This document shows, one piece after another, positions 1 to 63,190 of a stretch of DNA of 64,000 nucleotides. The notes under the pieces are model-generated. The model saw only the letters and a program-made list of their open reading frames with translations. It was not told where the DNA came from and did not search any database. This stretch comes from Obrimoposthia wandeli (lineage: Eukaryota), in assembly GCA_977020255.1 (NCBI GenBank), contig CDROCS010000550.1, positions 186,001 to 250,000 of the forward strand, written 5' to 3'. The translations under genes and the position numbers were made by a program. Positions within the stretch are counted from its first letter, which is position 1, and every line of letters starts with the position of its first letter.

Positions 1-1467
1 CCCCTCATTTTTGCTCCTATAAATTACATCTACAAAAGAATTTTTAAATATTTCTTCATCTGTTACATTAACTGGGATATCAGTATTATATTTGAATACA
101 TTAATACTCAAGTTATTAAGATGTTCAAATCTTGATATCGCAGTTAATTTAACAGGAAAATCTATTCCATGATACTGCAATTCATTTAAAAAAGGGGTAT
201 ATTTACTGACACGCTCTCTATGCTCAGTAATTACATCCCTTTTGAGGATGGCCAACACGCTATACAGAAAGCAAAGGTTATCACTGTTTTGTACGTTAAC
301 AATGGAACGTGAAAGTTGAAGAGATCTAGGTGAAGGAATGTATGAACTCCCCGAAAGATATATCATGTCAGTGAACTTTGTTAGAACAAAGCTAACATCG
401 TGAATTCTAACTAGAGTCCATCCACTACTTAACTCGCTATAATTAGCAATTTTTTCATCCAGGTTTCTTCCAATTTCAGTTACAAAATTATCATAAAAAA
501 CAGTTGCTTTATGTGAAATTACCCAAGTTTTAGTTTCCTCATTGACATTTTTGAACTGCACTGTTGCGCAAAATTGAACCTTAGCCTGTCCTAATTTAGT
601 CACTTCTGATTTTAAAAGATTTTCAATATTTGAATCTACACCTACGTTTAATAAAATTTCATTTCTTAATGGCACCTTAACTATAACATATTTATTATAC
701 TCTATAGTAGCATCGTTTTCTCTACGTTTTTTGGGTGGGACCTTATTAAGAAATTGGCCTCGCCTCTTTCTTCCGTTTGTCGCTGACAAACCTCCCCCTA
801 ATTGAACGGGAAGACAACTATTTATATTAATAGTTGAGACAATCGCAGCTGAGGTTGAAGGTGCTGCTATTGGTGATGCTGCCGATGTTGAGACAATTGC
901 AGCTGATGTGGAAGCTGCTGCTATTATTGATGCTGCCGATGTTGAGGCAACTGTAGATGATGTTGAAGGGACCGCTGACCTTTCCGATGAAGAAGCGGCT
1001 GTTGTAGAGGTTAGTGCTGCTGAAATATATTAAAAAATAAATATATTTTTAAAAATTATTACCTCTAAGACGTGCTAACATCGATGTAGGCACTCGCGAT
1101 GGTGGAGGCATATCTGTTGTAGCAGATGACGATTGTAGAACGGTATTTCCTGAATAAATAATATAAATAAAATATATATATTAAAAATAAAATATATAAT
1201 TACAATTTACAAAAATAAAAAAATACCTAATGAAGGCAATCCAAGTTGAGCTGGAACGAAGTCCTCTTCATTGATGGAATCCATCCAGCTGTCGTCCGTT
1301 GACTCGATGAAATCGGATTCCTCGATGGTCTCCAACCATGAGTTATCGCTCCACTGAGGCTGCTCCATCTCGAAATCTGACTGGGTGATATTTCGCATCC
1401 AGTCATTGTTTGAGAATTGGGTTGCTGGTGCCAACTCCTCAAAATCTTCCTCGGAGATGTCGTTCAT
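1..1467 (-). CDS. Protein-primed DNA polymerase B of P2, 5' part, spliced: exons 1467-1227, 1149-1063, 1019-<1
   Basis: GT-AG introns 1226-1150 (77 bp) and 1062-1020 (43 bp) are both phase 1 and join in frame. Exon 3 is open to the window edge and encodes SSGWTLVRI...SGSSYIPSP...IVNVQNSDNLCFLYSVLAIL...FPVKL...INVF, matching SGHSYIKSP...INIQNSDNLCFIYAILSIL...MPMKI...INVF of the pPolB at 6230-9343. First ATG at 1467 is inferred; the ORF-track start at 1566 is TTG. Confidence 0.8.
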
Positions 1468-1770
1468 CCACACATTTCGCGAGCCTGTATTTATTACTCG
1501 TTGATCCACCGCGGGCCCGTAAGGCACGCTTTGGCCAATTTTTTGGCCTCTCAGGACCTTAATCAAAATTTTGGGAGCATTATGAGATTTTTAAATTTAC
1601 AGGGTGTTAAATGGAGTTAATTTTTTTTTCTTTTTTTGAGTGTTTATGATGGGGGGGGTGTAAAAATATTTTCTACACACCTACACGAAATTTCACTCCA
1701 CACACATGCACGGTTTTAAAGGACAGTAGGGGGAGGGGGGTGTGGATTAGACCGGACACATCCACCTACT
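1..1770 (-). mobile_element. Terminal part of a second Polinton/Maverick family (P2): TIR (~1480-1770) plus the 5' part of pPolB; continues out of the window
   Basis: Minus-strand terminus reads AGTAGGTGGATGTGTCCGGTCTAATC, resembling the AGTAGGT terminus of the complete Polinton. 1480-1770 recurs inverted at 62915-63187. The adjacent frame is homologous to the pPolB N-terminal region at 9343-8850. Confidence 0.85.
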
Positions 1771-3020
1771 TATAGGTGCTGTGTTGGAGCAACTAGATGA
1801 AGTGGGCAAACCAGTCCCCATATCCTTCTTCTCTCGACGACTAACCAAAACGGAAATGCAGTATTCAACATTCGGCCGAGAATTCATGGCTATAGTCTTA
1901 TCAGTTAAAAATTTTAAGCATTATTTAGAACCATCTCAATTTACTGTGCTAACAGATCATCACCCATTAACATAGATACTTAATATGAAAGATTTCACTT
2001 GTCGACAATGAAGGTGGATTGAGTACCTAAGCCAATTGAACATTATAATAAGATATATTTAAGGTTCCGAAAATGGGGAAGCTGATCTATTATCAAGAAT
2101 TAATGAAACTTTAATTGAAAGTCATACAATAGATTTAAATGATCTGAAGAAGTTACAAGAATAAGAAAATCTAAAAAATGAATTTGAGAATTTCTCTCTA
2201 CAAATACAGAGATCATCTGAAGGTATTCTAGTAGATGTGTCAAAATCAAAGCCAAGAATATTACTTCCTAATACGTTTCAGTGAGAAGAATTTTCCAGAT
2301 TACACAATGGATGTCACTCTGGCGTGAAACCTACAACAGAAATAATTTCTGAAAGGTTCGTATGGCCAGGAATGAAAAGCAATATACGAACCTGGTGTCG
2401 AGAGTGTATTCAGTGTCAATGTTCAAAGATTAACAGACATCGAAAGAATTCAACGATTTCTGCATCCGAATGGGAATAAAGCATAAACAAACAACTGCTT
2501 ATCATCCACAATGTAATAGGAAAGTTGAGTGTTGACATATAACATTTAAAAATGATTTAAAGACTACTGCAACTAATGCAAACAAAGAATGGATTAAAAT
2601 TCTTCCAGATGTCTTACTATTTCTAAGAAATTCCATATCGAGTATCAAAAATGCTAATCTAGTCCAGCTAGTCTACGGAACGAATACCAGATTACCTGGG
2701 GATATAATTTCAAAGTATCCATCAAAATCTCTTTCAACAGAATCACTTAAGAGACTGATAGACTACTTCGATAGCCAAGAAGAGAGAAGGCCAATTAGTA
2801 ACAAATCGTTTGTCTATAAAGATCGGACGACATGTCAATTTGTTTGTATTCGAGTTGAAGTTCCTAAAAGCTTGCAAAATCCTTATCATGGTCCTTACGA
2901 AGTAATGGAAAAAAAGCTCTCATCTGAAAACATTCAAGCTCAGAATTGAATCAGAAAACAGAAAAAAAATCGATCGATCGATTGAAGCCGGCTTATTTCA
3001 TGACTCTTATACTTAAATAA
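1771..3020 (+). pseudogene. Ty3/gypsy pol remnant (RNase H and integrase), interrupted by the P2 insertion
   Basis: IGAVLEQ...ISFFSRRLTKTEMQYSTFGREFMAIV...LTDHHPL (RNase H), then LHNGCHSG...RFVWPGM...WCRECIQCQ (integrase HHCC) and a GPY-like PYHGPYEV; several stops. Confidence 0.85.
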
Positions 3021-5137
3021 GGGAGTGGCATAGAATACAGTTAAGATTTAAATGTTTAAATATTAACAATTCTATTTCTCTTATTATTAATTAAAACTTT
3101 GTTTTAATGTTAAGGTTTTATGATAAAAATACATTTTGAATATTTCGGTATTTTTAGTCTTTTTAAATGCTTGACTCAGAACCAAACCACAAAATATACA
3201 AATATAAATGTAGGAAATTAACAATTTGTTATATTATTTTGTATCGACACGTCAATCTTAGCGATTCTTAGCTGTTGTAGTTATCTACGTAAATTGACTA
3301 ACACGTAAAATTCATAACTACTGGGCGATTGAACTTTGAAATATTTCCTTTATTAAAACGACAGACAATCGAACTGAACCTCTTAATTAAAAACTTAAAT
3401 CACTAATAACAAAAAATACGACTTTGTAAATTTCATCCAGCAACTTTTGAATTATCTCAACTCTCTAAGCTTGGAAAATGTTCACAAAGCATTAAAAATT
3501 ATTTCAAAACATATTTTAGTTGTTTTCCCTATATATTCAGCTGAATAAAAATACGCTCTCAACATTTGCTTTAGATCATATTTTAGAACAATTAAGACGC
3601 GGTTATAGAGAAAATTTAATAATTACCACAATGGTAGCAAATATCGATAGTTATTTTACCATCAATTTTCATTATCATGTTGTCATATAATAACATATTT
3701 AAGAATTCTCAAAGTAGACTATTTTGATTTTCGTCTTTGTAGTATTTTCTGGAGACGTATGTACTTTAAAAATGGCGTACTGATGGCATTTACATCAAAA
3801 TGTGGGACTCAAAATAATAGTCATAATATATTTGAAAATTATAACGAATGAGAAAATTATAACATAATAATCTCCGTGAATAAATTTATATTACTCTCCG
3901 TTAAAAATTATTTTAGTTAATTATTTTACACGGTTTTCGTAAAGCTGTTTAAAATGAACAAAATTGTTTCACAAAATAAACAAACATCTTTAATTTATTA
4001 CTGTAGCTTGTACTCAGTGGTAAATATAAATAAAACAGATACAGGTTGAATGGTTATCAAAACAACATTAAATTGACCACAGTGGCTCATTTATATGCTA
4101 TATCTGTGTTGATGAGGACGTTTGATGGAAATACGGGATTAGAAATCACTTTAGTAGATTTAATGAATCTCAATTATTCTAATGCGAGGCCAGAGGCGAA
4201 TAAGAACCACTTAGAATTGAGGATGATTATAATTTTTCTGTTTTTTACTGTCCATATATGTTTCTCTCATGTCTACAATTTTTGGTTCAGTCGATGTTCA
4301 ACTCGATTCATAATAGTCTCAAAATCACTGATAGATCTTCCATCAACCTGCCCCTTATCACTCTACTTTGATGTGAAAAAATGCTCATAATTGTGCTGAG
4401 GGAAATTGATTGTGTGTAATGGCAGACAACATTTCAAAATTATATCTGAGATGGTTAAAATAAAATATAATTATATTTAAGTACTATATTAAATTATTAT
4501 ACTTATTTATATGATTATAGTATATTTGCAAGAGTGCTTGAATGAATGTACTCAATAACTGAATTTTACATGATATCCTCAGGACGAAAGAAGAAACATA
4601 ACCTATATGTTGTGTGTGTAGCTGTTTAAATATAAATTTGAAATATGAATGTATTGACTCGAAACGAAACTAACAATATCAAAATTTAATTTATTATGAT
4701 AAATTGTTATTTCGATCAATCCACTTTAATATAACTACCATATATTTAATATAACATTTAGTTTCCGTATGGTAATGATATGATTAGGTGTACAAAATAA
4801 TTTTTATAATACATTTTCTGTTTAAATATTTTCTATTTTCATGTTATTTCTGAATAAAGTGACCATTCGTCAAGCATTTCGCTGGATTTCCTGGCATTCG
4901 CATAGTTCTCCCATCATAAATATTTGTACAGCATTTTTGAAGATTGATTACTTTATTTTGTAATAAATTTGTTAAATTTCTATTGGGTTAAAAGTTGGAC
5001 AAGATGTATGCATTAAAAAGTCATTAGGAAAGTCAATCTCAGAAACTGTTCATTTTATGAACCATGTGCCAGTAGGGTTTGCTCTAAAAAATTTAAAATG
5101 AATCTGCCATTCACGCACAATTTTTGCCTATATTAGA

Positions 5138-6165
5138 AGTAGGTAGAAGGATGGAGTCTAGATCACTTGACCCCCCCTGTGTGCGCACACCAAGTTAAAG
5201 GGTGTCACACCATAAGGGTGTCACACCATAAGGGTGTCACACAATAGAAATGTCACACCATAGAAATGTCACACCATAAGGGTATATGTTGCCTCACCAT
5301 AGGGGTGTCTTGCCACACCATAAGGGTCTGGCTCAGAAAGGTTATGAAGGTTTGAAGGTATGGTCGTGACGGTCTATGGTCGGCCAACATACCCAAGCGG
5401 TTGTGGTCGTCCATAAATCAAAGGGTCGGACTCAGTTTTGACTTGAAACTTTGAAGGTATAATTAAGGTCAACTATGGTTGGCCATCACATCTAAAGGGT
5501 TGTGGTCGTCCATAGGTGAAAGGGTCGGGCTAAAAAACAAAGTCAAGTTTAAAATATCAAGGTTTTAGTACATGGTTGGAATCATCTTTAGAAGGTGAAT
5601 TCAGTCATAAAGTATGGTCGGTCATATATGAAGGGGTCGGGATATAGACCAAATCAAGTTTTAAATGTCAAAGTTTGAATACATGGTTGTAATCATCTTT
5701 AGAAGACGAATTCATCCATATAGGTATGGTCGTCCATAGATGAAGGGTTAAAAAAAGTTGGAATTTCATAGTTTCAAGTACATGGTTGTATTCGTCAACA
5801 TATTACGAGTTTATTCATGTAAAATTTTTATGGTCGTTCACAAATGTTAAGGGTTAGATTTGGCATAAATTAAGAAATTATATAGTATTCAATCAATTAT
5901 TCTATGTGAAAGTTCATTCTTAAAAGTTAAGGAATGTATTACATAATCACACACACACTATTCTATGTGAAAATTTAGTCTAAAGTTCACTCTTATCAGT
6001 TAAGGAATGTGGTTTTTAACACACACACTATTCTATATGAAAATTTAAGCTAAAGTTCACTTTTATCAGTTAAGGAATATATTACAAAATAACACATACT
6101 ATTCTATGTGAAAATTCAGATCAAAGTTTTTTCCAGGCTTATGCATCTAAAGAATTATGTTAAAA
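5138..6165. repeat. Left terminal inverted repeat of P1 (~1.03 kb)
   Basis: Reverse complement of ~15705-17073. Contains short CACACCATAAGGGTGT-type repeats and about two 99-bp units. Inner boundary approximate. Confidence 0.9.
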
Positions 6166-6229
6166 TTTATATTAAATCAAAAATAAATAAGAAAGAAGTT
6201 AGAGAATAATACAAAATTAAACACATTTA

Positions 6230-9200
6230 TTATGTAATTTCATAATGTCCATAAGCGCGGCTTCTATTTTTCTCGATCCAATAGCGTTTGTCATCTGATG
6301 AGCTGAGAGTAGTCTTTTGTGTTATGATTGTGTATAGTTGATGATTTATTGTTCCAAACTTCTTTTGTGGTATAGTATATGCATTACCGTTTTCATACAC
6401 GTCTAAATATGTTTGATGTACAACCGTTGATCCCTTAAGATTTACTCCTTTTGCTTTATTATTTTCAAAGTCATCTTCAAACTTAAGTGAATAACATTTA
6501 CAAAGTAAGAAAATCCATTCTTTATACATTCTTCCTTCCGATTCATCTTTAAATAAACCTATTTTACTATTAAATTTATTAGAATATAATGGATCATTCA
6601 CATTATAATTTGACGTATCTAATAATCCATCTGCAATCATTTTTGGTAACAACTGTTTTCTTAAATTAACGTTTTTACATTCCAAAAAGAATGAGTCGGT
6701 ATCACCGGCAACTATATTAATTGAACAATTGAATAAATTACGATATATTTGCAAATCATGATACTGAAGAGTATACATTCGTAATTTGCTAAGGTCTAGT
6801 ACAGCTTGGCCTATATAATTTGGTCGATCGAGACAAATAAAGTCTTTTCTTAATAAAACAGCTATTAAATTATCATGAATTTCAATTGTTCGTTGAAACA
6901 TAGGTTTGCTAGTATATGTAATTAATTTTGTAGAACTAGTGCAGATGCGAAGATTCAACCGTTTCTTAACATTTTCAACGGTCTTTCCATACAAACTAAC
7001 ATTTTTAAGTTTATAAAAATCTTTGTCACATTTATTCGTTGCTTGTGATCTCATTTCTGAATTATATTCTATATATTCTGCGAATATCTTAGCCTGAGAG
7101 AATTTTACTGCTCGATGAATAATTGTTACCACTGCTCCTAAACTAACATACATCTGCAATAGTCTCCAATGAATAACATAATGACTTTTTGGCGAATGCG
7201 TCATTAAAAGTTTTTCAACTTTTTTACCAGGTGGACATTTCTTTTCTGGAGCTATAGGAAGATCATCTAAAAAGTCATGAAGGTTTTCTGGTATTACCAA
7301 GTCTACTTCCATAACATAACCATATTCAATATGTTCCATGTTCACATTTTTCATTTCATGCAATATTTCGTTTAATTTTATATCATCAAGAATCCATTCA
7401 AAATCTCCTTTTGGTAAAGGTTGATCAAGAGCCCATCCATGTAAATTATTAACATCTATATATAAAAGACGTGTTTCTTCATCAGCGACTACATGATGCT
7501 TATTGACAAATGTCATTCCTCCTCGTATACCCGAAGAAATCATGTTGTACATTTCAGGATCCTGTATCAGTTCAACCTTATGTTTTAACATTTTTAGAGC
7601 ACTTGCCCAACTCAACCCAGGAATGCTAAAAATGTTAAGTGGTTCTAAACCATCTTCACTAAGAGCTTTTCTTCTGAATGTTTGAAACACGTCAGCTAAT
7701 AAATATACGTCAGTCTTTAAGTAAACTAACATATAATCCAACATATTTCTACAATTGGTTATTTTCCAAACATCTTGTGCTTTTTGATATTCAGTGTCTG
7801 TGATTTTATCATTCCATTTTACTGGTAAACTTAACTTATTCTGGAGGACATTTAATGATGTAGCAAAATCATATGGGAATATTCCTTTGCCATCAATAAG
7901 TTTAGATGGAAAAACTGATCTTGTTAATGGAATAGTTGGTAATTTACCGGCTAAATTTTCCAAAGATGATTGCAAAAATTGCAAAGAATCTATAAATCTC
8001 AGAGTTATTTTACCTAATCTTACAATCATGGCTTGAAACTTTTCCGTTGATTGTGGTATAATATTTATATCCCAGTCAGTAAATTTATTCAATGCATGTT
8101 TTAAAATATGATGTAAATCATAACCTCTGAGATTATGAAACACAATAGGTAAAGTTGGACGAAGTTTTCTTGATAAATTACATTCATTGCATGCAGGACC
8201 TAGATACTTGCCAGTAAAGTGATCATGATCTTTAACATATTTTTCAGATGATTCGTGACATAAATAACATTCATCGGCATTGCTAAATGTATGAATCTCT
8301 GCATTTGTTAAGGGAATCATTACTTTTTTAAGAGCATCTAAATACCATGGCAAAACCTTTTCTTTAGCCAAGTTCTCTATTGACTGAAGAAATTTAACTA
8401 TGCAGTCATCACCAACATTAAGTTGATACTGGGTTTCAATTTCATCTGTACTCATAAATAACATACCAGATGCGACAGGCATATGCTTTTGATGATAACT
8501 CTCATCTGGTACTAATACAGATTCAAAATCAGCGTAAACGACATATTTCGGTGATATAGTTTTTGACCAATCGTTGAATTTAACGTACTTATTCTTAGGC
8601 ATAGTATACATTGTAGTGCTTTCTTGATTATAGTCACATAAAACTTTATGCTTTTCTAATGACAAATCGGTTTTGAAACCATGTAAACACTTTTCACACC
8701 ATTTTCTGCTAATTCTAGTCGTTCCAGTTCGAATATTTAATAGCCGGTTAAGACAACTTATTCCTATATAATGAAACCGTTCCTTGGATTTGAGTAACAA
8801 TAAATTAACTATAGTTCCTTCCTTCATTTTTGATTTGTATGCAACATCGATATAAGGATTCTTGATAACATCAGTTTTTGATTCTTTTTCACTTACCTCG
8901 TTGAATATGAATACATTTATTATTATACCAGGATTTTGCCTTTCAAATTTTGATATATTTGATATTTTCATTGGCATGTCTTCAGTATTATATACAAAAT
9001 CATTTAAAAATCTTTCATAGTTACTTGGTCTATTTCTATTTATTTCTATTTCATTATATTTAAGTATTGATAATATTGCATAAATAAAGCAAAGATTATC
9101 AGAGTTTTGAATATTTATGACTGCTTTAGATTTTGTAAGAGAATTTGGTGATTTAATATATGAATGACCTGACAATGCACAAATTTGACTATATTTAGTA

Positions 9201-9343
9201 GCAATAAATGCATATTCAAGTATATTCATCAATTTCCCACCACTACCTTTTTCTGAATATTCTTCAACTTTATTTTCCATTGTATCTTCCATTTCTGAAT
9301 TATAGCATGTGAAAAAATCATTGCTCGATGCAAAGCATACCAT
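6230..9343 (-). CDS. Protein-primed family B DNA polymerase (pPolB), Polinton type
   Basis: Exo motifs VVYADFES, IVFHNLRGYDLH and DVYLLAD; embedded CYLC...DHDHFTG...CNECNL Zn-finger/endonuclease-VII-like segment; pol motifs LYIDVNNLHGW, KLKNVSLYGK, AGDTDS, KAKG. The true start is probably upstream (frameshift near 9312-9317). Confidence 0.95.
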   Translation of the reverse strand: MVCFASSNDFFTCYNSEMEDTMENKVEEYSEKGSGGKLMNILEYAFIATKYSQICALSGHSYIKSPNSLTKSKAVINIQNSDNLCFIYAILSILKYNEIEINRNRPSNYERFLNDFVYNTEDMPMKISNISKFERQNPGIIINVFIFNEVSEKESKTDVIKNPYIDVAYKSKMKEGTIVNLLLLKSKERFHYIGISCLNRLLNIRTGTTRISRKWCEKCLHGFKTDLSLEKHKVLCDYNQESTTMYTMPKNKYVKFNDWSKTISPKYVVYADFESVLVPDESYHQKHMPVASGMLFMSTDEIETQYQLNVGDDCIVKFLQSIENLAKEKVLPWYLDALKKVMIPLTNAEIHTFSNADECYLCHESSEKYVKDHDHFTGKYLGPACNECNLSRKLRPTLPIVFHNLRGYDLHHILKHALNKFTDWDINIIPQSTEKFQAMIVRLGKITLRFIDSLQFLQSSLENLAGKLPTIPLTRSVFPSKLIDGKGIFPYDFATSLNVLQNKLSLPVKWNDKITDTEYQKAQDVWKITNCRNMLDYMLVYLKTDVYLLADVFQTFRRKALSEDGLEPLNIFSIPGLSWASALKMLKHKVELIQDPEMYNMISSGIRGGMTFVNKHHVVADEETRLLYIDVNNLHGWALDQPLPKGDFEWILDDIKLNEILHEMKNVNMEHIEYGYVMEVDLVIPENLHDFLDDLPIAPEKKCPPGKKVEKLLMTHSPKSHYVIHWRLLQMYVSLGAVVTIIHRAVKFSQAKIFAEYIEYNSEMRSQATNKCDKDFYKLKNVSLYGKTVENVKKRLNLRICTSSTKLITYTSKPMFQRTIEIHDNLIAVLLRKDFICLDRPNYIGQAVLDLSKLRMYTLQYHDLQIYRNLFNCSINIVAGDTDSFFLECKNVNLRKQLLPKMIADGLLDTSNYNVNDPLYSNKFNSKIGLFKDESEGRMYKEWIFLLCKCYSLKFEDDFENNKAKGVNLKGSTVVHQTYLDVYENGNAYTIPQKKFGTINHQLYTIITQKTTLSSSDDKRYWIEKNRSRAYGHYEIT

Positions 9344-9922
9344 TCTTTAGTTTCTCCATCATTCTTTTCAAACCTCATTCTAATGATGTATTGTATCTTT
9401 GCATTTCCCATTAATTGCACTATTCTTTCTAGTTCGTTTAATAATGAAACTGGAACCTTAAGACTTACAAGATTGAGATGATCTACTTTCATGGATATCA
9501 TTGAATAACTATTTTCTAACGATGTTTTAGTCTGTATATTGTCATTTATTTTACGTTTTCGTGACGGAGTAGGAGCTGAAATTACTATGTTTGATGGTTC
9601 ATTGATTATATCAGTTCTTTTGCTTAAAGCCGGTACTTTAAATAATGTTTTCTTACTACCACTTTTTATATTCTTTTAAATGACTAACATGTCGACTATA
9701 AAATAAGTTGTAATCAACATTTTCAGTGCTTAAACATTGTGGACATATGAAATAATTTATCCTTTTGTATGAATAACCATAATAATTTTTCATGATATCA
9801 TGACAGACTTGAGGATTAAAATGTGTTTCCGATGAACAATAATTTGAATAAGTTTTACATATACTCATCTGATGATATGATTGGTATTGAGACATTGATT
9901 GATTTGATTGGACTTGAGACAT
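9229..9922 (-). pseudogene. Frameshifted N-terminal extension of P1 pPolB (ORFs 9656-9922 and 9229-9660)
   Basis: GNAKIQYIIRMRFEKNDGETKEWYALHRAMIF aligns with GQAKVQFCATVQFKNVNEETKTWVISHKATVF of P2 pPolB. Single-base indels in homopolymers at 9312-9317 and 9663-9667 would restore one ~1230-codon ORF. Confidence 0.65.
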
Positions 9923-9983
9923 TTTGTTCTAAAATAAAAATAAATATATATATAAATACAATAATTTAATTATTTTACTTACA

Positions 9984-10538
9984 ATGTTAACAAATATTAA
10001 TTATAAAGGAATTTGCTTAGATGATGTATCCAAATTAAAATTTCGAACACGACCAGAACAATACGTTTATAAAGCCAAAGATTATACAATACTTATTTTT
10101 AGAAATAAGAAATGCAGGATTATGGGATGTAAGGTACCTATTAAAAATATTTCTTACACTTTAAGAATAAATATACTTGGTATTCAATAAATTATGGTAT
10201 GTGAAAATTTAGATCAAAGTATCAATCTATTTAAATTATGGAATGTGTTACGTAATACATGTTCATTTGACCCTGAGGTTTTCCCAGGCTTAAGATTAAA
10301 TATTTTCAATCCATTGTGTGTAAATATTTTCACATCTGGAAAGGTCGTAATTTTAGGTCTTAGAAATTTAGATTTTCAAAATCAAGTTAACGATATCATG
10401 ACATACATTAAAAAAAATTATATAAATACGAAACAATTTCTAATTAAATCATTCAATTTTAAATTTCTTATAAAGCCGTTCAAAAGTATTACGAGTATGA
10501 TATGTTCTTCTTGGCATCTGCATGGATTCATCCAATGA
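9984..10538 (+). pseudogene. TATA-binding-protein (TBP)-like protein, two-repeat core, one in-frame TAA at 10188-10190
   Basis: The two listed ORFs share one frame. TILIFRNKKCRIMGCK matches TBP TALIFxSGKMVxTGAK; IQ*IMVCENLDQSINLFKL matches [30 protein letters not shown]...VNIFTSGKVVILG matches SYEPELFPGL...LLIFVSGKxVLTG. Confidence 0.85.
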
Positions 10539-10852
10539 CTATGCCAGTGACATTATCGAAAACTTCGTACAATTACCGAGTCTCTGATTTTGACGACAAA
10601 GACATTCAACAATTCAATGATGTCGTCAAATATTTGAAAATTGACATTGAACTTGAGAATGAGGGTATATTTATGCGCGGAGATAAGTGCAAATTTTATG
10701 ATTGTTCCGGAACAAAGATTTCAGATATTCAAGAAGATGGAAGAAGTTGGATGCTCGAAATAAAAATTCTCGGATATAAAATAAATAAAAAGAATGAAAC
10801 AACTCTCATCTGGAGGATTCATACAGCGACCGAATATTTTGATGTTAAATAA
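10502..10852 (+). CDS. Polinton accessory ORF of unknown function (116 aa)
   Basis: Open frame between the TBP-like and ATPase genes, same strand; no motif recognised. Confidence 0.5.
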   Translation: MFFLASAWIHPMTMPVTLSKTSYNYRVSDFDDKDIQQFNDVVKYLKIDIELENEGIFMRGDKCKFYDCSGTKISDIQEDGRSWMLEIKILGYKINKKNETTLIWRIHTATEYFDVK

Positions 10853-10930
10853 ATATTTAATAAAATGTTGTTATTGTTATAAACATGTACTTATTCTGAT
10901 ATATTTATTTTATATTAATATTTATATATA

Positions 10931-11560
10931 ATGTTATTAACAGACAATTCGACTTTTCAAGTAGTAGGACCAAGTGGTAGTGGAAAAACTTTATTTGTTT
11001 GTAAATTATTAAATTCAAGAATGTTTAAAAATAAATTTAATAAAATATATTGGCATCAAGGTGGTGACGGAGAAACTGGTTTAACAAACCAAGAATTTAA
11101 TAAAATAAAAAACATTAAGATTATTAACGGTTTTGACGAAAATTGGATGACAAGACTCGTAAAAGGCGATGTAATTGTTATTGATGACTTATATCAAGAG
11201 GCTAACAAAGAATCTGATTTTAATGATTTATTTACAAAAATTGCAAGACATAGAGAAGTTACTGTAATTTTTATAACCCAAAATTTATTTCATCAAGGAG
11301 GAAATCATCGTACTCGTAATCTTAATGTACATTATTTGATTTTATTCAAAAATCCTAGAGATCAAACAGTGATAGATTTTATTGCTCGTCAAGCATTTCC
11401 TCATAACAAGAGTTATTTAATTGATGCGTTTCATGATGCTACATCTTTACTTCATGGTTATTTATTTTTAAATTTTACTCAATCATGTCCTGATGATTTA
11501 AGAATTGTTACTGATATATTTAACCGTAATGGTATTACAGTCGATAAACAAAATAAATAA
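10931..11560 (+). CDS. Packaging ATPase (A32/FtsK-HerA type)
   Basis: Walker A GPSGSGKT, Walker B VIVIDD, ARH...IFITQNLF motif. Confidence 0.93.
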   Translation: MLLTDNSTFQVVGPSGSGKTLFVCKLLNSRMFKNKFNKIYWHQGGDGETGLTNQEFNKIKNIKIINGFDENWMTRLVKGDVIVIDDLYQEANKESDFNDLFTKIARHREVTVIFITQNLFHQGGNHRTRNLNVHYLILFKNPRDQTVIDFIARQAFPHNKSYLIDAFHDATSLLHGYLFLNFTQSCPDDLRIVTDIFNRNGITVDKQNK

Positions 11561-11580
11561 TAATAATGTTTTAAAATAAA

Positions 11581-11991
11581 ATGAATTTTAAAAAGAGTAT
11601 TCTTAAACATAGTAAAAGGACAGATAAAGATGAAGTTAAAAAATTAATAAACACTGTATTATATGATCGTAATAATATTGAATTTTCAAAAAGTTTACCT
11701 TATTTTAAAACCTTAATTGACGTATCAAAAACGAATAAAATGAAAATGTTGAAATCATTTCCAATTTATGTAGTTGATGATTTAATAAAAATTTTAAATA
11801 AAATAATTTATGGTAAAATTAAACCTGATCCTAATATTTTAAAATATAAAAATTCATTAATAAATTTAGCAAATTCACGTGATAAAATTAATAAAAGAAA
11901 CATTATTTACAATCAAAATGGCGGATTCCTATTGGCCATACTGCCCGCTATAGCATCAGTAATAGCTGGTCTTATAAGTTCAAGAAGTTAG
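11581..11991 (+). CDS. Basic core-like protein with adenovirus pX-like C-terminus
   Basis: Lys-rich; ends QNGGFLLAILPAIASVIAGLISSRS, an xGG-x adenain-type site followed by a hydrophobic helix, resembling adenovirus pX GGILPLLIPLIAAAIG. Confidence 0.65.
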   Translation: MNFKKSILKHSKRTDKDEVKKLINTVLYDRNNIEFSKSLPYFKTLIDVSKTNKMKMLKSFPIYVVDDLIKILNKIIYGKIKPDPNILKYKNSLINLANSRDKINKRNIIYNQNGGFLLAILPAIASVIAGLISSRS

Positions 11992-12182
11992 AAGTTTAAA
12001 AAAAAATTATAAAATTATATAAGAGTCTTACAAAGTAACATTAATAAGAAACTTACATTAAATGTTGAAGTAGATTCTCCCGATGTACCAGGAACCATTG
12101 TTGTTGATGCTGATGTAGGAATCATTACCGCGGCTGCTAGTCTAAAAACAATATTAAAATTAATTTTAAAAAGAAAAAAAAA

Positions 12183-12287
12183 TTATTTTTTATGTTTCTT
12201 ACTCTGCATATGAGCATCCATTGAATATTTATTATTCATTGGTCCTGTTTGACATATTTGGCAATTAAATCTAAATATAAATCATAA

Positions 12288-12325
<38 letters not shown>

Positions 12326-12340
12326 AACTCACGTATTCAT
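12183..12340 (-). CDS. Spliced micro-gene encoding a U1/matrin-type C2H2 zinc finger: MNTFNCQICQTGPMNNKYSMDAHMQSKKHKK
   Basis: Exons 12340-12333 and 12270-12183 joined by a 62-bp GTGAGT...TTTAG phase-2 intron; CxxC-x12-H-x2-S-x2-H pattern. Confidence 0.65.
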
Positions 12341-12669
12341 TTGGAGTCTTGATTTATTTAAATTAAAGAAAATAACAAAATAGTAAATTATATTTAATTT
12401 AACATTTCAATTTATAATAGATATCCTATTATGTAATTTCAATTATTGATAATAATATAATTATCTCAATTGCTACAATTGAATTGTGCCTATTTAATTA
12501 TGATAGTTGCCTTAATAACGAAAATTATAATAATAATATTAAATAATTACATTCTTTCGTTTTATACAAACATATAAACAGATTAAAATATATTTAACTT
12601 TTATAATAATGGGGATAAACAATACAAAGTTGTCTAACTTATTTATAAATTTTAATTCTTCATGCTGCA

Positions 12670-13695
12670 ATGGAAAAGATTTGGAACAATCCAGAAGATC
12701 CAGACGGGTATACAGGGTTAGAAAAATTGACAAAAAGAGTCAAACAATCAAAAACAAACACACAAAAATGGTTAAGAAATGAATTATCATATAGTTTGAA
12801 TAAACCTTTAAGACGTAAATTTCCTACTAGATTATATAAAACTAATGGTATTAATTCCTTATGGCAGATGGATTTAATGGAAATGATACCTTATTCTTCA
12901 GTAAATAACGGATTCAAGTATATTTTAACTTGTATTGATGTATTTAGTCGTTTTGCAAGGGCAGTTGGTATTAAATCAAAATCGGGTATTGATTTATTAC
13001 ATGCAATAGAATCTTTAATTGTTGATGATGTACCAGTAAATATCAAAACCGATGAAGGTAAAGAATTTTTTAATTCACATGTTAAGAAATTATTTAAAAC
13101 TGAAAATATCAATCATTATTCAGTATATTCTCAATATAAAGCTGCAGTAGTTGAAAGATTTAATAGAACGTTAAGAGAACGGTTAAAGAAATATTTTACT
13201 AAACAAGGTAATAAGAAATGGGTGAATGTATTACCAAAAATTATTTATGCTTATAATAATTCTAAACATAGAGGTTTAGATGGTTTAAAACCTGTAGATG
13301 TAAATAATAAAAATGCATTTGAAATTTGGTTGAAACAAAATCCAAAAGAAAAGAAAGTTAAATCTAAATATAAAATTGATGATTATGTTCGAATATCAAA
13401 AATAAGTACAAGTCCATTTATTAAAAATTTTAATCAAAATTGGAGTGATGAGGTTTTTCAAATTCATGATATTAATTATAAACAAAATCCAATAATGTAT
13501 ATTTTAAAAGATATTGATAACATCATCATCAAAGGAAAATTTTATAAACAAGAGTTACAATTAATTGATAAACCTAAACTATATCGAATACAAGAAATTT
13601 TAGAAACTAAAGGTCGTGGTAAGAATAAACAATATTACGTAAAGTGGCACGGATACTCTGAACCTTCTTGGATATTTGCTTCTCAAATTGAATAA
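12670..13695 (+). CDS. Retroviral-like integrase (rve DDE) with C-terminal chromodomain
   Basis: WQMDL, KTDEGKEF, AAVVERFNRTL catalytic motifs; SH3-like DDYVRISK...WSDEVFQI; chromodomain YRIQEIL...YYVKWHGY..PSWI. Stop overlaps the next ATG (TAATG). Confidence 0.95.
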   Translation: MEKIWNNPEDPDGYTGLEKLTKRVKQSKTNTQKWLRNELSYSLNKPLRRKFPTRLYKTNGINSLWQMDLMEMIPYSSVNNGFKYILTCIDVFSRFARAVGIKSKSGIDLLHAIESLIVDDVPVNIKTDEGKEFFNSHVKKLFKTENINHYSVYSQYKAAVVERFNRTLRERLKKYFTKQGNKKWVNVLPKIIYAYNNSKHRGLDGLKPVDVNNKNAFEIWLKQNPKEKKVKSKYKIDDYVRISKISTSPFIKNFNQNWSDEVFQIHDINYKQNPIMYILKDIDNIIIKGKFYKQELQLIDKPKLYRIQEILETKGRGKNKQYYVKWHGYSEPSWIFASQIE

Positions 13696-14765
13696 TGTCA
13701 AAATATATTATTTTACCTAGTAATAGTTGTCCAAGTACTCAACCTAACAATAAAGCCAATCAATTTACTGTAGATTGGGAAAACTCTCTAAATTTAGATG
13801 GTGAATGGGAGGTTGCCTTGTCTGAATTTGTATTTAATTATACTCCTTTAACAATACAAACTAATTCAAAAATACTTTATAAAACAGAAAAGATAGAAAT
13901 GAAAACTTTCGATGTATCTTTTGCAATTTTAAATGGATTAATTATTAATAATTTAAATAATGTTTTCAATTTCAAAATTACAAAGAATCAAAAATTAGAA
14001 ATAAGTACAATTAACAGTATTCATCGAATGTTGTTAAAATTCGAATCTTTAGAAGAATCAAAAATTATAGGTTTTAATGAAATACAAAAAAAAAATCAGC
14101 ATAATCTTTCGCTCTATTCAGAAACTTCAAAACCAATTATTCAAATTCTAGATGCTAGATTGTATGTTAGAAGAGTAAAAGTTGATTCTTCAGTAATGAT
14201 TGGACATCAGTTAGGTTTGCAAAGTCAGAATGCAGTTTACCCAATTAGAAAAACTCAGTTAGTAACATATTCAATTCCTCAGGGTTCTTTGGAACTTAAT
14301 AAAGATCAAATATTCGGAGACTATCGTTTACCCAAGTTCATTTTGATTGCTTTCAAAGATACACCTCAGGGTGGTAAGGAATACAAAGTTAAATCTTCTA
14401 CGTTCAATACATTTAATGTTTCAACAATATCATTAGCTAGAAATACAGATTATCGAGAAACTTATAATCTAGATAATAACAATTTTTCATTAGCATATAT
14501 GCAGTCAATTATTCGAAATATGAATATTTTAGATAAAAACTTGAATAACGGTATCAGATTTTCTGATTTTAAATCAGGAAGTTCGATTTTCACTTTTCTA
14601 TTAGCACCAGATTTTGATATAAACACTACTCAAGTGCCTAAAACTGGTAATTTAAGACTTGAAATTAGATTTAATTCTCCTTTGGTTGTTCCAACAAGTG
14701 TTTTGATTTACGGAATATTTGATTCCGAAATTCAGATTACGAAAAATAAAACTGTGATTGTATGA
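13695..14765 (+). CDS. In-frame fusion of minor capsid (penton) N-terminus and major capsid (double jelly-roll) C-terminal half
   Basis: N-terminus YIILPSNS...NKANQFTV...LDGEWEVALSE is Polinton penton-like. From about residue 140, IQILDARLYVRRVKV...YPI...TYSIP...LPKFILIAF...GNLRLEIRF...LIYGIFDSEIQI is Polinton major-capsid C-terminal-like. Confidence 0.75.
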   Translation: MSKYIILPSNSCPSTQPNNKANQFTVDWENSLNLDGEWEVALSEFVFNYTPLTIQTNSKILYKTEKIEMKTFDVSFAILNGLIINNLNNVFNFKITKNQKLEISTINSIHRMLLKFESLEESKIIGFNEIQKKNQHNLSLYSETSKPIIQILDARLYVRRVKVDSSVMIGHQLGLQSQNAVYPIRKTQLVTYSIPQGSLELNKDQIFGDYRLPKFILIAFKDTPQGGKEYKVKSSTFNTFNVSTISLARNTDYRETYNLDNNNFSLAYMQSIIRNMNILDKNLNNGIRFSDFKSGSSIFTFLLAPDFDINTTQVPKTGNLRLEIRFNSPLVVPTSVLIYGIFDSEIQITKNKTVIV

Positions 14766-14799
14766 AGTAAGCTTATTGTATATTATATTCTTTATTTAA

Positions 14800-15138
14800 A
14801 TTAGTACTTTAGAAATTTATAAATCCGGAAAAATATTATTGAATAACAAATTTAATGGAGTATATTCATTGGATAAAATTCCATCATTAAAACCCGGAGG
14901 CTACATTATCAATACTCATACTTCAAATCTACCAGGCGAACATTAGATAGCAATATTTGTTGACAGATTCGAGATTCGATTGTTTGATCCTTTTGGATTC
15001 TATTATCCTTCAAAGTTGGTGTCTACACTTGAAAAAGAAAATATTCCAGTCTACTATAATCGAGTTAAATGTCAGAATCCATTAACTAAAAACTGCGGAC
15101 CTCTGAGTCTTTTATGGTTGAAACTTCAACACAAATAA
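14800..15138 (+). pseudogene. Adenain-type cysteine protease, inactivated
   Basis: Manual translation: YIINTHTSNLPGEH*IAIFVD...FDPFG...CQNPLTKNCG. The conserved GEHW Trp is TAG at 14944-14946; no ATG at the apparent start (ATT). Confidence 0.88.
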
Positions 15139-15189
15139 TTTTAAGTATAAACAAATATATCATTATAGTATTTCATTTTATTTTTTCAA

Positions 15190-15642
15190 ATGGCTTTTAT
15201 TGATTTAGAATGTTTTATTGATAATAATGGAGAATATATTCCAAAGGAATTATGTATAATGTATGTGAATGATATGACTTGTCCATTTAATTACGTGTTT
15301 AAAAATCAAATACCATGGAGTAGTTTATCATTTACAGTTAAAAGAAAAAATCTATATTTGATAAATCATCATCATCAGTTATCCTGGTTTGAAGGTGAAA
15401 GCTCTGATATTCATATTGATGATGTTGAAACAATATTCTATGTTATGGATTCTATTGATGGAAAGAAAATTAATTTAGTGAAACGAATGTTTCCAAATTT
15501 GAGAATTGTGAATTATAATAAAAGTTTCAAAAATTTAAAGAAAATGCCAAAAAATATTCGATGTCCGTTTAGAAAACACGGAAAACATTGTGCTTATTTG
15601 AAATGTTTTTCTCTATGTATTGATTATGTAAATTGTATATAA
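15190..15642 (+). CDS. Putative DnaQ/DEDD-like nuclease-fold protein with C-terminal Cys/His cluster
   Basis: N-terminal FIDLECF (DxE) followed by YIPKEL; C-terminal CPFRKHGKHCAYLKC. Fold assignment is from motif recall only. Confidence 0.5.
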   Translation: MAFIDLECFIDNNGEYIPKELCIMYVNDMTCPFNYVFKNQIPWSSLSFTVKRKNLYLINHHHQLSWFEGESSDIHIDDVETIFYVMDSIDGKKINLVKRMFPNLRIVNYNKSFKNLKKMPKNIRCPFRKHGKHCAYLKCFSLCIDYVNCI

Positions 15643-15704
15643 ATATATTTATTAAGGATATTTTATTTTTATTTTAATATGTAATTTAAGTTATTTAAAG
15701 AAAA

Positions 15705-17073
15705 TTTACCATAATTCTTTAGATGCGTAAGCCTGGGAAAACTTTGATCTGAATTTTCACATAGAATAGTATGTGTATGATTACGTAATACATTCCATAA
15801 CTGATAAGAGTGAACTTTAGCCTAAATTTTCACATAGAATAGTGTGTATGATTACGTAATATATTCCTTAACTTTTAAGAGTGAACTTTCACATAGAATA
15901 ATTGATTGAATACTATATAATTTCTTAATTTATGCCAAATCTAACCCTTAACTTGTGAACGACCATAAAATTTTTACATGAATAAACTCGTAATATGTTG
16001 ACGAATACAACCATGTACTTGAAACTATGAAATTCCAACTTTTTTTTTAACCCTTCATCTATGAACGACCATACCTATATGGATGAATTCGTCTTCTAAA
16101 GATGATTACAACCATGTATTCAAACTTTGACATTTAAAACTTGATTTGGTCTATATCCCGACCCCTTCATATATGACCGACCATACTTTATGACTGAATT
16201 CACCTTCTAAAGATGATTCCAACCATGTACTAAAACCTTGATATTTTAAACTTGACTTTGTTTTTTAGCCCAACTCTTTCACCTATGGACGACCACAACC
16301 CTTTAGATGTGATGGCCAACCATAGTTGACCTTAATTATACCTTCAAAGTTTCAAGTCAAAACTGAGTCCGACCCTTTGACCTATGGACGACCACAACCC
16401 TTTAGATGTGACGGCCAACCATAGTTGACCTTAATTATACCTTCAAAGTTTCAAGTCCAAACTGAGTCCAACCCTTTAATTTATGGACGACCACAACCCT
16501 TTAGATGTGACGGCCAACCATAGTTGACCTTAATTATACCTTCAAAGTTTCAAGTCAAAACTGAGTCCAACCCTTTAATTTATGGACGACCACAACCCTT
16601 TAGATGTGACGGCCAACCATAGTTGACCTTAATTATACCTTCAAAGTTTCAAGTCAAAACTGACCTTGACCTTTTGATTTATGGACGACCACAACCCCTT
16701 GGGTATGTTGGCCGACCATAGAGAGTCACGACCATACCTTCAAACCTTCAAGTCAAAACTATGCCTGACCCTTTAAATTATGGACGACCACAACCCTTTA
16801 GTGGTATACCAAAGAAGGGTGGAGACTAGATCAATTGACCCTTCCCCCTCCCCCCTATCTTAAACTTTCTGAGCCAGACCCTTATGGTGTGGCAAGACAC
16901 CCTTATGGTGAGGCAACATATACCCTTATGGTGTGACACCCCTATGGTGAGGCAACATATACCCTTATGGTGTGACACCTTATGGTGTGACATTTCTATG
17001 GTGTGACACCCTTTAACTTGGTGTGCGCACACAGGGGGGGTCAAGTGATCTAGACTCCATCCTTCTACCTACT
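15705..17073. repeat. Right terminal inverted repeat of P1 (~1.37 kb)
   Basis: Inverted copy of the left TIR with extra 99-bp units starting at 16287, 16386, 16485, 16584, 16683 and 16782. Confidence 0.9.
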
Positions 17074-17478
17074 ATTAGAATAGGGAAAGTTTAAAATAAT
17101 TAAGTCAATATAGTCAATAAAATAGTCAATAGTTAATATAGTCAACCTCTCAGTAAAAATTTGATTTAAAAAATATTTTTAAAAAATGAATTAAAATATT
17201 TATTTAATTTTAAAAAACTAATTTATTTAAGGTCATGAAAATGTGTTTTTTTTGTGAAGCACAAAAATGCCAAGGAAAGAGTATTTGTTAAAATTTAGAG
17301 CCTCGGAAAAAATACATATGTTATATTTGATAATTGTTATATTTTTACTGAATTATTATTTCCAACTAATTCATTAGCTAAAGTTTCTGTCTTAACTAAT
17401 AACAATAATTATCAGAAAATATTATAATTTTATCAGTAAATGCAATAACAATGGTCAGCAATTATTTGCGTTTTCTGT

Positions 17479-28049: not shown

Positions 28050-29053
28050 ATGATGTTCCAGTATAACATAAGAAGATACGATGGAATGAGTTCAAAGGAA
28101 GGTGAACAATGGTTAAAGGATATAGGAGAATGGGTTTGCGCAAATCAGATTAATATTGGGGATGCATTTGAGTTGCTGTTGACCGAAGAAGCTGGATTAT
28201 TATGGAAAGAAGCCAGTGAAAGGTTAACTTCAGATATCGAAGTCAAAAAATGGTTTGAAGAAAATTTCCTAGAAAGCAAATCCATAGTTCGTCATTAGAG
28301 TGAAAAAAACTCGTTGAGGCTATTATGAAAAATAATATTAGCAAAGATGAGCTGACTGACGCTTTCATTAAAGATACCGTAAGAAGTGAAAAATTGAAGG
28401 AGCAGTTCTTATTAAAACCACAGATGCCAAAAGAAGAAATAGAGGCGTTAGCAAAGGTGTACAGCGAAATCGAGAAAAAGAATACCGTGATTGCACAAAT
28501 TCAGAATACGTATGCAAATACAGTAAAAAGAGAATACAATCGTCCTGACAACCGTCATTTCTCAAACAATACGAAGAAACCCCCAGTATCAGTACCAGTA
28601 TCAGTACATCAGGATCAAAGAATTTGTGTTAATGAAGAAAACATATACATAAATAGAAACGCCCAAAATCAAAATAATTTGAGACCATTGCCAAGGTTTT
28701 CCTTAAAACAAATAGCTAAAAGAAAATATAACTTAGCCAAGGTACTGCTTGTCACAAAAAGTGAAGAACTTCAGCCAGGAGCATGTTTTTGTTGTGGTGA
28801 AAAAGGTCATTTCCGAAATCAATGTCCTCTCAATCACAAATGTTTGATTTGCGGAAAAGAAGGTCACAATTTCAACAGCTGCTATATTTTAAAGAACTCA
28901 CATCAAACTTCAAGAGTACTTTGTAAAACAGTGAAAAGAAATAATCAAGATTTAGAAGATTGTAATAATGACGACATGATCATACATGATGTTAATCAGG
29001 GAAACGTGAGCGATCCCATTGCTCATATTTCATCGGTGGGATCAAGCATATAG
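28050..29053 (+). pseudogene. gag of the 131-bp-LTR element (split by a small deletion)
   Basis: CFCCGEKGHFRNQC and CLICGKEGHNFNSC knuckles; the copy at 40325 retains the segment missing near 28290. Confidence 0.85.
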
Positions 29054-29186: not shown

Positions 29187-31134
29187 TGTTGGGGTTTCTA
29201 TATGAAACTTATATAGATCCTCTTGAATGTGGAGGGCCCCAACGTGAGTTCTGTAGAAGTAGGTCTTAAAGTTGGTCGTGGCCTACTTAATGTTATGGTT
29301 GCCTGTCTCAATTGCTTATCTGAAGGTGTTTGTTTTTGATGTCTCTTAATCTGAAGGGTTTAAAACAATGCTTTCTAATGTAGGAAATCGTTTATTGTTA
29401 ACACACTAGATTAAACACAACAATACGTTTACGTACGTATTTTCTAAAAAGTTACAGTAAAAATTCCTAAGACTTCTGTAAGTCTCTACGCAAGTGGGGA
29501 TGAACCACGTATCGATTTTAAGCTTAGGTTTGCTTGGGCGCTAGAGTCTTTACTCTAAGACTGCGGACAATTTAAATTTTTATAGATTTTACAGAGCTGT
29601 TGCTCTAAAATTTGGAAATGAGTTTAGATGGTGGTTTAGGGTAGTTTACAGAGCTGGTACTCTAAAATTGTAAGTAGTTAACAGAGGTGTTGCTCTAAAA
29701 AGAGGGATAAGTTAGGACTTTTACTTTCAAGTTAGCAATATCGATATCCACTAAACTTTATAAATAGTCTTTATTATTACTTGGCTAGACTTTATAAATA
29801 GTCTTTCTTATTACTTTATTAGACTTTATAAATAGTCTTTCTTATTACTTTATTAGACTTTATAAATAGTCTTTCTTATTACTGACTTTATAAATAGTCT
29901 TTCTTATTACTGACTTTATAAATAGTCTTTCTTATTACTGACTTTATAAATAGTCTTTCTTATTACTGACTTTATAAATAGTCTTTCTTATTACTGACTT
30001 TATAAATAGTCTTTCTTATTACTGACTTTATAAATAGTCTTTCTTATTACTGACTTTATAAATAGTCTTTCTTATTACTGACTTTATAAATAGTCTTTCT
30101 TATTACTGACTTTATAAATAGTCTTTCTTATTACTGACTTTATAAATAGTCTTTCTTATTACTGACTTTATAAATAGTCTTTCTTATTACTGACTTTATA
30201 AATAGTCTTTCTTATTACTGACTTTATAAATAGTCTTTCTTATTACTAACTTTATAAATAGTCTTTCTTATTACTGACTTTATAAATTCAAAATCTTGCG
30301 GTATTTATACCTTTAGTTGCTGGTTTTATGAATCCTCTCGAATTGGTGAGACGGAGTTGAACGGCGAATTGGTGAGACAGAGTTGAACCGCGAATTGGTG
30401 AGACGGAGTTGAACTGCGAATTGGTGAGACGGAGTTAGACGGAGTTGAGAACTGTTTTAGTCTAGTTATTTGAGAATCCTCGCGATTTGTGAGACGGATT
30501 TGAGAACTGTCTTAGTCTAGTTATTTGAGAATCCTCGCGATTTGTGAGACGGAGTTGAGAACTGTCTTAGTCTACTGCTGATTGTTCTGCTAGCAGTATT
30601 GATTTGTCTGCAAAATGAGAATTTAATCGGAAAGTATGGGTGCGGTTCACCTGTTGTTTTCTTCCGAAGCACTGGGCGCTCCTTTTCTGACTTGGATTTT
30701 TTCTTTCTTTTTCTTTTTTCTGATTAAGAATAATTTGACTTATATAGTCTGAACTTCTTCTGGACACCTGCCAATCAGTTAATTAACTTCTTCTCGGCTT
30801 GGCTAATTTCCTGGCCTGCAAGGGTAGATAATCGATTGGCACTAAAAATGTGCTTACCTTTTTGCTGACGTGACGTGGTTGCTGACGTCAACTGAATTTC
30901 TTAATTTCCCTTGGTTTCTCTTAATTTTTTGCACTTTTGTTTTTTAATTTAACATTATATATACTCACGCATTTCACACGACCTTCGTGGTCTTCTAATA
31001 TTTATTTACCTATTTACTTTTAACATTTTAATTTTAAATTTTAATTTTATTTAATTTTAACCTTGTTTTCAAGGATTTTCATTTTAGTATAAATTCACTT
31101 AATTATTTAATTTTAACAAAACCTATTCCTAACA
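29187..31134 (-). mobile_element. Solo LTR, 1948 bp, inserted in the gypsy protease
   Basis: TGTTGGGG...CCTAACA with TSD GTGT; removing it restores protease SKDCVKKVG; TATATAA on the minus strand near 30745. Confidence 0.92.
29755..30290. repeat. 28-bp tandem array GACTTTATAAATAGTCTTTCTTATTACT (~18 units)
   Basis: Read directly from the sequence; lies inside the 29187 LTR. Confidence 0.95.
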
Positions 31135-63187: not shown

Positions 63188-63190
63188 CAC

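Follow-up and report, generated by a model that had tools for sequence, protein, structure and literature searches.

A Polinton pPolB gene with a very likely spliced, modular leader carrying acidic W/F repeats

In the accessible parts of 10.1101/2024.03.18.585575, PMC8502044 and 10.1101/2023.08.22.554363 the pPolB of Polintons is described with a terminal-protein domain, a vOTU domain and an inserted HNH domain, and in the first of these (Krupovic et al.) the vOTU is proposed to cut behind the terminal protein. The accessible text of PMC8097293 reports intact vertebrate elements without introns, and that of 10.1101/2022.07.12.499685 calls the Polinton core genes intronless; such intronlessness is a descriptive trait and not a criterion that excludes an element from the Polintons. 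In adenoviruses, according to the accessible text of PMC4246237, the protease accepts (M/I/L)XGG/X, tolerates Gln at P4 and cuts pTP. The polymerase gene described here differs from the Polintons of these accounts in having three predicted spliceosomal introns, and in adding a leader of about 300 amino acids, in which an unnamed Cys/His domain is joined by four acidic W/F repeats and a QLGG site. The gene is that of a Polinton pPolB, and its modular leader is very likely spliced.

The gene was found in a window of 64,000 nucleotides (the whole stretch of DNA that was analysed) of a 1.35-Gb eukaryotic assembly, where it forms the left part of a Polinton, the rest of the element lying upstream of the window. 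From the Polinton gene set, which besides pPolB comprises a retroviral-like integrase, a packaging ATPase, an adenain-like protease and capsid proteins, rve was found at E 2.3e-9, and the Pox_A32, Peptidase_C5 and DJR-like matches were weak and below the cut-off. Identity of the polymerase to 11 relatives is 41-50%, and PF03175 is present in two groups of these; the viral contigs searched yielded no relative of the polymerase. Long copies have terminal inverted repeats, and both ends with a 6-bp target duplication were recovered in three of five, the left end having been missed by the pattern in the other two. Judged by its sequence, the element is a Polinton/Maverick with a pPolB. In a tree from a quick search (SH-aLRT support only) the family falls inside a clade of 24 rows with a support of 100, in which intron-bearing and intronless leaders are mixed; since the tree does not fix the position of the family inside that clade, we draw no order of gains from it.

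The family is very abundant. Among 3898 candidates, 39 of the 40 other matches listed span positions 1476-1000 of the window at 99-100% identity, and identity to exon 2 is 96-100% throughout the 150 matches scored. The anchor was found in 26 of 29 fetched copies, and all 26 share a sequence upstream of 1476 which is unlike that of the window and leaves the frame unbroken. In the window copy the left end of the element is joined to the middle of exon 2, with about 5 kb missing; another 0.8 kb or so is missing near the polymerase C-terminus, the polymerase gene contains an internal stop, and both ends of the element are present between unequal flanks. Within the family, this is a broken copy that has suffered deletions. 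A reading of 1477-1770 as a foreign insertion was rejected, this segment being the element's own left end. Because of the internal deletion, and because other copies read on upstream, the Met at 1467 is not the gene start of the family; the same deletion explains why the preliminary description, made from the window sequence, misplaced the bounds of the feature. The features as now delimited are listed in Table 1.

Table 1. Positions in the window of the features of the polymerase gene, from the left end of the element to the start of the vOTU-like domain
Feature	Position	Strand	Remark
Polinton left end (terminal inverted repeat starting AGTAG, plus left-end sequence)	1477..1770	-	Fused to mid-exon 2 by a deletion of about 5 kb
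3' part of exon 2	1227..1476	-	Exon of 619 nt elsewhere; Cys/His domain and Pro/Ala linker, about 120 codons, missing here
Acidic W/F repeat 1, WMNDISEEDF	1441..1470	-	
Acidic W/F repeat 2, WMRNITQSDF	1372..1401	-	
Acidic W/F repeat 3, WLETIEESDF	1309..1338	-	
Acidic W/F repeat 4, WMDSINEEDF	1258..1287	-	
Predicted GT-AG intron, 77 nt, phase 1	1150..1226	-	93% AT; second intron of the full gene
Exon 3, 87 nt, symmetric	1063..1149	-	93 nt in most copies of the older subfamily
Predicted GT-AG intron, 43 nt, phase 1	1020..1062	-	93% AT; length varies by non-multiples of 3
54-bp tandem in S/T/A-rich linker	833..969	-	Copy number varies in frame between copies
QLGGG, candidate adenain-type cleavage site	790..804	-	Between leader and NLS/terminal protein
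Basic RKRR...PPKKRR, NLS-like	721..771	-	RKRR 771-760, PPKKRR 738-721; similar basic clusters in relatives
Predicted terminal-protein domain, little-finger/PAD fold	370..699	-	Definition in the accessible part of 10.1101/2024.03.18.585575
Nearly invariant Ser in SSGW	429-418	-	Loop before last strand of terminal-protein domain
Start of vOTU-like domain	1..369	-	Conserved Cys in NLCF at 279-268

Several other elements were seen in the window. A second, different Polinton family with long, repeat-rich terminal inverted repeats occupies approximately 5123-17088; its polymerase, frameshifted in this copy, has the same Cys/His domain and a short linker without the W/F array. An isolated left end of the studied family (62917-63188) is followed by a 33-bp tandem array (63191-63542). 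A Gln/His-rich open frame of 327 aa without a Pfam match (45655-46638, plus strand) is probably a host exon, and a zinc-knuckle (gag-like) ORF (28304-29053, plus strand) adjoins large tandem arrays at 29856-30574 and 34243-35403.

In other copies the full gene consists of a TATA-like box, a first exon of 9 nt, an intron of 47 nt, a second exon of 619 nt, two more introns and a last exon, which stays open for 1204 codons in the copy that served as protein reference. The intron of 47 or 48 nt behind the 9-nt exon is present in 24 of 28 scored copies, and exon 2 measures 619 nt in 21 of 24. In the window (minus strand) the GTs lie at 1226 and 1062 and the AGs end at 1150 and 1020; the two introns are far richer in AT than the exons (52-53%), and their removal leaves the model in frame (241+87 nt). 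The preliminary description had spliced these two introns in frame onto pPolB, which is supported by the splice sites, the AT content, the frame and the comparative conservation. A third intron lies further upstream in other copies, and what that description took for "exon 1" is the downstream portion of exon 2.

The indels point in the same direction. When 39 young copies were compared with one real copy, shared indels of a length other than a multiple of three fell mainly in the introns: the last intron is 4 nt longer in 19 copies and 1 nt longer in six, the middle intron 1 nt shorter in four. Shared indels in the linker measure 3, 6, 9 or 54 nt. Counter-evidence comes from some shared exon indels that do break the frame (1 nt near the NLS in four copies, 77 nt in two). 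An older subfamily of 26 copies, about 75-80% identical (the query and three tandem near-duplicates were left out), keeps all three intron positions and, in 25 of 26 copies, the GT of the first intron. The introns flanking exon 3 range there from 45 to 97 and from 40 to 74 nt, and exon 3 itself is 93 nt, a change of 6 nt, in 13 of 18 copies.

Similar introns are predicted in relatives and neighbouring genes. Four of eight modelled metagenome relatives need introns and four do without any; all nine introns in the best models are of phase 1, 40-53 nt long and 81-96% AT. In the relatives P0001, P0002, P0006 and P0011 the Cys/His domain, linker, basic cluster and core are all in one frame. The TBP-like gene of the element has a 38-nt intron where the colinear homologue in the second Polinton is intronless, and RPA1-like genes of the host have introns of 38 and 44 nt with 89% AT. 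We consider it very probable that the polymerase gene is spliced from four exons with three tiny, host-style introns; the case is a comparative one, since it is built on splice sites, indels, and the comparisons with the subfamily and the relatives. The trait of intronless core genes is thus not found in this element, for which comparison supports introns in the polymerase, TBP-like and upstream genes.

A multi-exon acidic gene upstream of the polymerase (L039:3122-1050, minus strand) has, by eye, about six short AT-rich GT-AG introns; it is deleted from the window copy. Between it and the polymerase an ORF of about 165 aa (L026, about 2400-2900, minus strand) starts with IIDFEAF, ends in a Cys/His cluster and looks by eye like a DEDD-type nuclease fold.

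Exon 2 encodes, in this order, a Cys/His domain of about 80 aa, a Pro/Ala linker and the W/F repeats; the array had been placed at the N-terminus of the protein, a position it loses in the other copies, where the domain and the linker precede it. A profile built without sequences of this genome matches exon 2 at E 1.7e-15 (best of 1000 shuffles: 0.79). A search of representative proteins gave 24 matches to exon 2. Each of them runs through the zinc domain, with its best stretch inside residues 1-118, and the repeats were never the part matched. Of the 80 metagenome loci 7 contain the domain, as do five further Polinton families of the same genome, where it is followed by a short linker, the NLS and the polymerase. 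Its ligands, C-x-C-H-C plus CxxC-H-x2-H, are invariant or nearly so, the pN/pS in the older subfamily is 0.31 and the structural model has a pLDDT of 81.5; the domain is a probable zinc-binding one. Pfam holds no family for exon 2, structure searches with the model gave a best Z of 2.6 and no Foldseek match at E <= 0.001, the Atlas search with the domain returned no usable match, and a word search for longer proteins matching exon 2 found none. Tandem copies of the domain were seen in P0011, P0065, P0069-P0071, P0076, P0079 and P0082, in some of them behind classical C2H2 fingers.

Downstream of the repeats, the 54-bp duplication in the S/T/A linker and the basic stretch reported in the preliminary description were both recovered; its list of leader parts had passed over the conserved Cys/His domain and the QLGG site. 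QLGGG fits the adenain substrate pattern (M/I/L/Q)-x-G-G or -x-G-x-G. Of 50 leaders, 17 have a motif of the Q-x-G-G type before the NLS, against none of 561 control windows, many of the 17 carriers being close kin and 16 of 66 sequences having been dropped for lack of an anchor or leader. Seven of the ten nearest scored relatives do not have the strict motif in the tested window, some of these being N-truncated gene calls. Three motifs of this type also occur in the small core-type ORF of the element, the protease of which matches Peptidase_C5 weakly (E 0.029). QLGG is a candidate cleavage site, at which the leader may be removed.

The model of the terminal-protein domain (pLDDT 88.9) resembles the little finger of PolIV (Y-family) with Z 8.1 and an rmsd of 2.4 over 92 residues, and its S111 is nearly invariant; the predicted structure is consistent with a terminal protein of little-finger/PAD fold with a loop Ser. 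C162 and H267, a Cys/His pair of the vOTU type, are nearly invariant in 39 sequences; no OTU structure was among the fold-search matches listed. Beyond the window the gene continues into exonuclease, HNH and polymerase domains.

The four repeats, on the minus strand, follow the pattern W-[ML]-x-x-I-x-[EQ]-x-D-F. When the exon was shuffled 100,000 times, one match was obtained in four of the shuffles and two or more in none; as the pattern was drawn from the repeats themselves, this shows no more than that they are not compositional chance. The four acidic repeats of the preliminary description can to this extent be confirmed at the positions of Table 1. They were compared with equation 1 of PMC10550315 (Kotha-Staller), which, in the accessible text, demands of a 39-aa tile a charge <= -9, W+F+Y+L >= 7 and a diagonal rule. 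The rule is passed by 7 of 45 tiles of the repeat region, covering repeats 3-4, by none of the 1166 tiles from elsewhere in the polymerase and by one of 86 relatives; it rewards any acidic, aromatic tile, and the predictor is reported there to have a low precision (18% overlap with known domains). The repeat region likely forms an acidic tail of the activation type, as predicted from its composition. The first exon of the acidic upstream gene passes the rule in 10 of 193 tiles.

Our preferred reading, to which we give a rough probability of 0.4, is that the leader resembles that of a precursor terminal protein and that the repeats are an activator-type docking tail for host nuclear factors, trimmed off by the protease of the element. 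The four exons would yield one polyprotein with the zinc domain, four W/F repeats, S/T/A linker, QLGG, NLS, terminal protein, vOTU, exonuclease/HNH and polymerase, in which the leader would have the role that the precursor part has in adenovirus pTP, the repeats docking the host factors. If the vOTU cuts behind the terminal protein, the leader would stay on the 5' ends of newly made linear genomes and not with the polymerase. At the genome ends it would bring coactivators or general factors to promoters near the ends and to replication sites, up to maturation, when the element's own protease would cut it off at QLGG. This reading is favoured over recruitment of RPA70N, a free transactivator, a spacer and an internal partner because of the passed activation-domain rule, the enrichment of Q-x-G-G and the predicted vOTU cut.

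The main idea of the preliminary description, supported there by a presumed likeness to ATRIP, was that the repeats may bind RPA70N and recruit host RPA to the displaced strand in protein-primed replication. Acid-x-x-Phe in three of the four repeats indeed has the spacing of D519/F522 in PrimPol (PMC5457501), and the accessible texts of PMC10479964 and PMC13237216 describe tandem RPA-binding motifs in WRN and such a module on a polymerase subunit, Pol32. RPA70N-like genes are present in the host. However, the acid-x-x-Phe pattern is too generic to be diagnostic, and for a core replication need one would not expect the array to be missing from nearly all relatives. A motif scan of 80 metagenome loci gave no match and one of 86 related proteins gave two loose single matches, of which that at the N-terminus of P0008 alone looks similar; the array is also absent, read by eye, from the five other Polinton families of the genome. 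Conservation of the motif, the survey of which had been suggested, thus extends to the four units in the older subfamily, and outside the family to one related protein at most. The array appears to be lineage-specific, and its absence from the five other families means that its role is dispensable for most relatives. Furthermore, the leader lies N-terminal to two predicted cut sites and would therefore not stay on the elongating polymerase.

Recruitment of RPA had also been argued from the premise that Polintons lack an ssDNA-binding protein, which is weakened, as a lead, by conserved candidates for such proteins in both the element and the neighbouring Polinton. Two neighbouring, paralogous ORFs of 158 and 173 aa, 30% identical, were seen in the element (L041:8107-8580 and 7569-8087, minus strand), and a homologue of the pair in the second Polinton (window 10463-10849, plus strand). 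The Atlas clusters nearest to the pair consist of proteins from Nucleocytoviricota, with Pox_I3 (12%) and DUF2738 (13%) among the members, which we take to be families of ssDNA-binding proteins; the scores of 0.87-0.89 are below the tool's line of 0.9. Pfam PF10927 and PF04661 gave no match in this genome and none in the controls either, sequence searches of Pfam, PHROGs and PDB gave no name for the candidate, and the viral contigs searched held no relative of the 158-aa ORF. As a lead only, the paralogues may be ssDNA-binding proteins encoded by the element. All in all, we regard recruitment of RPA by the repeats as unlikely. In the host, RPA70N is spread over three exons; several RPA70N-like paralogues were seen (L081, L163-L167), some of which seem truncated after the second exon, with L165 continuing into the next OB domain, and a search from the host exon for a full-length RPA1 found none.

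Quite unlikely, in our estimate, is a free, E1A-like transactivator made of zinc domain and repeats, which would arise by retention of the middle intron (with a stop at about 220 aa) or by release at QLGG. Exon 2 does read into a stop inside the next intron, giving an open frame of 217 aa in most copies; a zinc domain with an acidic tail has the layout of a small activator, and the Cys/His domain also occurs in tandem in proteins without a polymerase in the called sequence. Yet the downstream splice sites and the in-frame exon of 87 or 93 nt are conserved in both subfamilies, the short product would have no NLS, and in other families zinc domain and polymerase are directly fused.

We hold it to be improbable that the repeats are an internally duplicated spacer under a loose constraint, for example on charge or disorder. 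Such a spacer would agree with the lineage-specific array, with the widely differing lengths and compositions of the leaders of relatives, and with the 53-70% identity of the units at the DNA level, which is consistent with an old duplication. Against it speaks the way in which the array has been kept. All four units persist in register in the older subfamily, and the fixed distance from W to F in four diverged units points to a binding surface. The pN/pS of the repeats is 0.45 (codon bootstrap 0.29-0.73), below 1 and below the 0.77 (0.57-1.05) of the adjacent linkers, with a bootstrap value of 0.034 for the difference; the intervals are too narrow, as older copies share ancestry and their pairs are not independent, and decay after insertion pushes pN/pS toward 1. 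Changes are rarer at the W, M/L, I, D and F positions than at the remaining ones (333 of 439 vs 837 of 1228 kept, again in non-independent pairs). Counts of N and S among the young copies were set aside, because these copies had been chosen by similarity to the repeat region. The repeats appear to be under purifying selection within the lineage, and this, together with the passed activation-domain rule, lends support to the earlier proposal of a functional, multivalent acidic-aromatic array.

Acidic-aromatic peptides bind TBP, and the element encodes a TBP-like ORF and carries a strongly basic NLS in the same chain, but since the TBP-like and SSB-like genes are also found in a family without the array, it is very doubtful that the repeats bind one of the element's own proteins (TBP-like, candidate SSBs, basic core) or fold back on the NLS or terminal protein as a regulator. 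The TBP-like gene (PF00352) was seen in both Polintons, at L032:1064-1600 (plus strand) in the same element with E 1.3e-11 and at 9985-10535 (plus strand) of the window in the second with E 3.9e-9. LIR (W-x-x-L/I/V), PIP and TFIIH-p62 (F-x-x-V) readings by inspection do not fit all four repeats, and the same holds for the Rb CR1 and LxCxE patterns given in the accessible text of PMC8502044.

At stake are the recruitment of host factors by Polintons, the protection of displaced single strands and the switching on of genes. An extension of the preferred reading to a whole clade of animal Polintons would combine a spliced, cleavable leader with a constant, uncatalogued zinc domain and with short-motif arrays that are swapped by gain of exons and introns; the leader would form, in the present family, an activator or host-factor hub tethered to the genome ends and removed by the protease at maturation, and the elements would have their own TBP-like factor and a pair of SSBs of the giant-virus type. 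Taken as a whole, we think this extension is unlikely to hold; if true, Polintons would have a fuller replication and transcription kit than has been described. Searches of the openly available main texts returned nothing on this leader, on a TBP-like gene of Polintons or on a Polinton SSB. As Polinton core genes are screened as intron-free, spliced families have probably been scored as degraded, and their N-termini mis-annotated. The W/F array, as a local embellishment, would be of limited general importance. The defined peptides of the family, its unnamed zinc domain, the candidate cut site and the candidate genes for ssDNA-binding and TBP-like proteins are each open to work in vitro.

The polymerase shares with the pPolB of Polintons/Mavericks (adintoviruses) a predicted terminal protein of the little-finger type with a loop Ser beside a Gly, the HNH insertion and the pPolB motifs, and it has a conserved Cys/His pair as would be expected of a vOTU. 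Adenovirus pTP, in the accessible text of PMC4246237, likewise carries an extension at the N-terminus of a terminal protein that primes the genome, and a site of the protease consensus lies between extension and priming domain; however, pTP is the product of a separate gene, whereas here the precursor part is a zinc domain with a disordered acidic array fused to the polymerase, and the likeness is one of layout, no similarity of sequence between leader and pTP being claimed. With the RPA70N motifs of PrimPol, WRN and Pol32 (accessible texts of PMC5457501, PMC10479964 and PMC13237216) the repeats have in common that they are short, acidic and aromatic, in tandem as in some of these, and placed on a replication enzyme, but a constant W-x3-I-x4-F register like theirs is not known to define motifs that bind RPA. 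In net charge and W/F/Y/L content they lie within the predictor boundary, as do VP16 H1 and CITED2 in the accessible text of PMC10550315, and the array adjoins a domain containing CxxC as in the 'Oncoid', E1A-like proteins of adintoviruses (accessible text of PMC8502044). The Rb-binding CR1 or LxCxE of the latter study is, by inspection, not matched, and in contrast to both the activators and the Oncoids, the repeats described here are fused to a polymerase.
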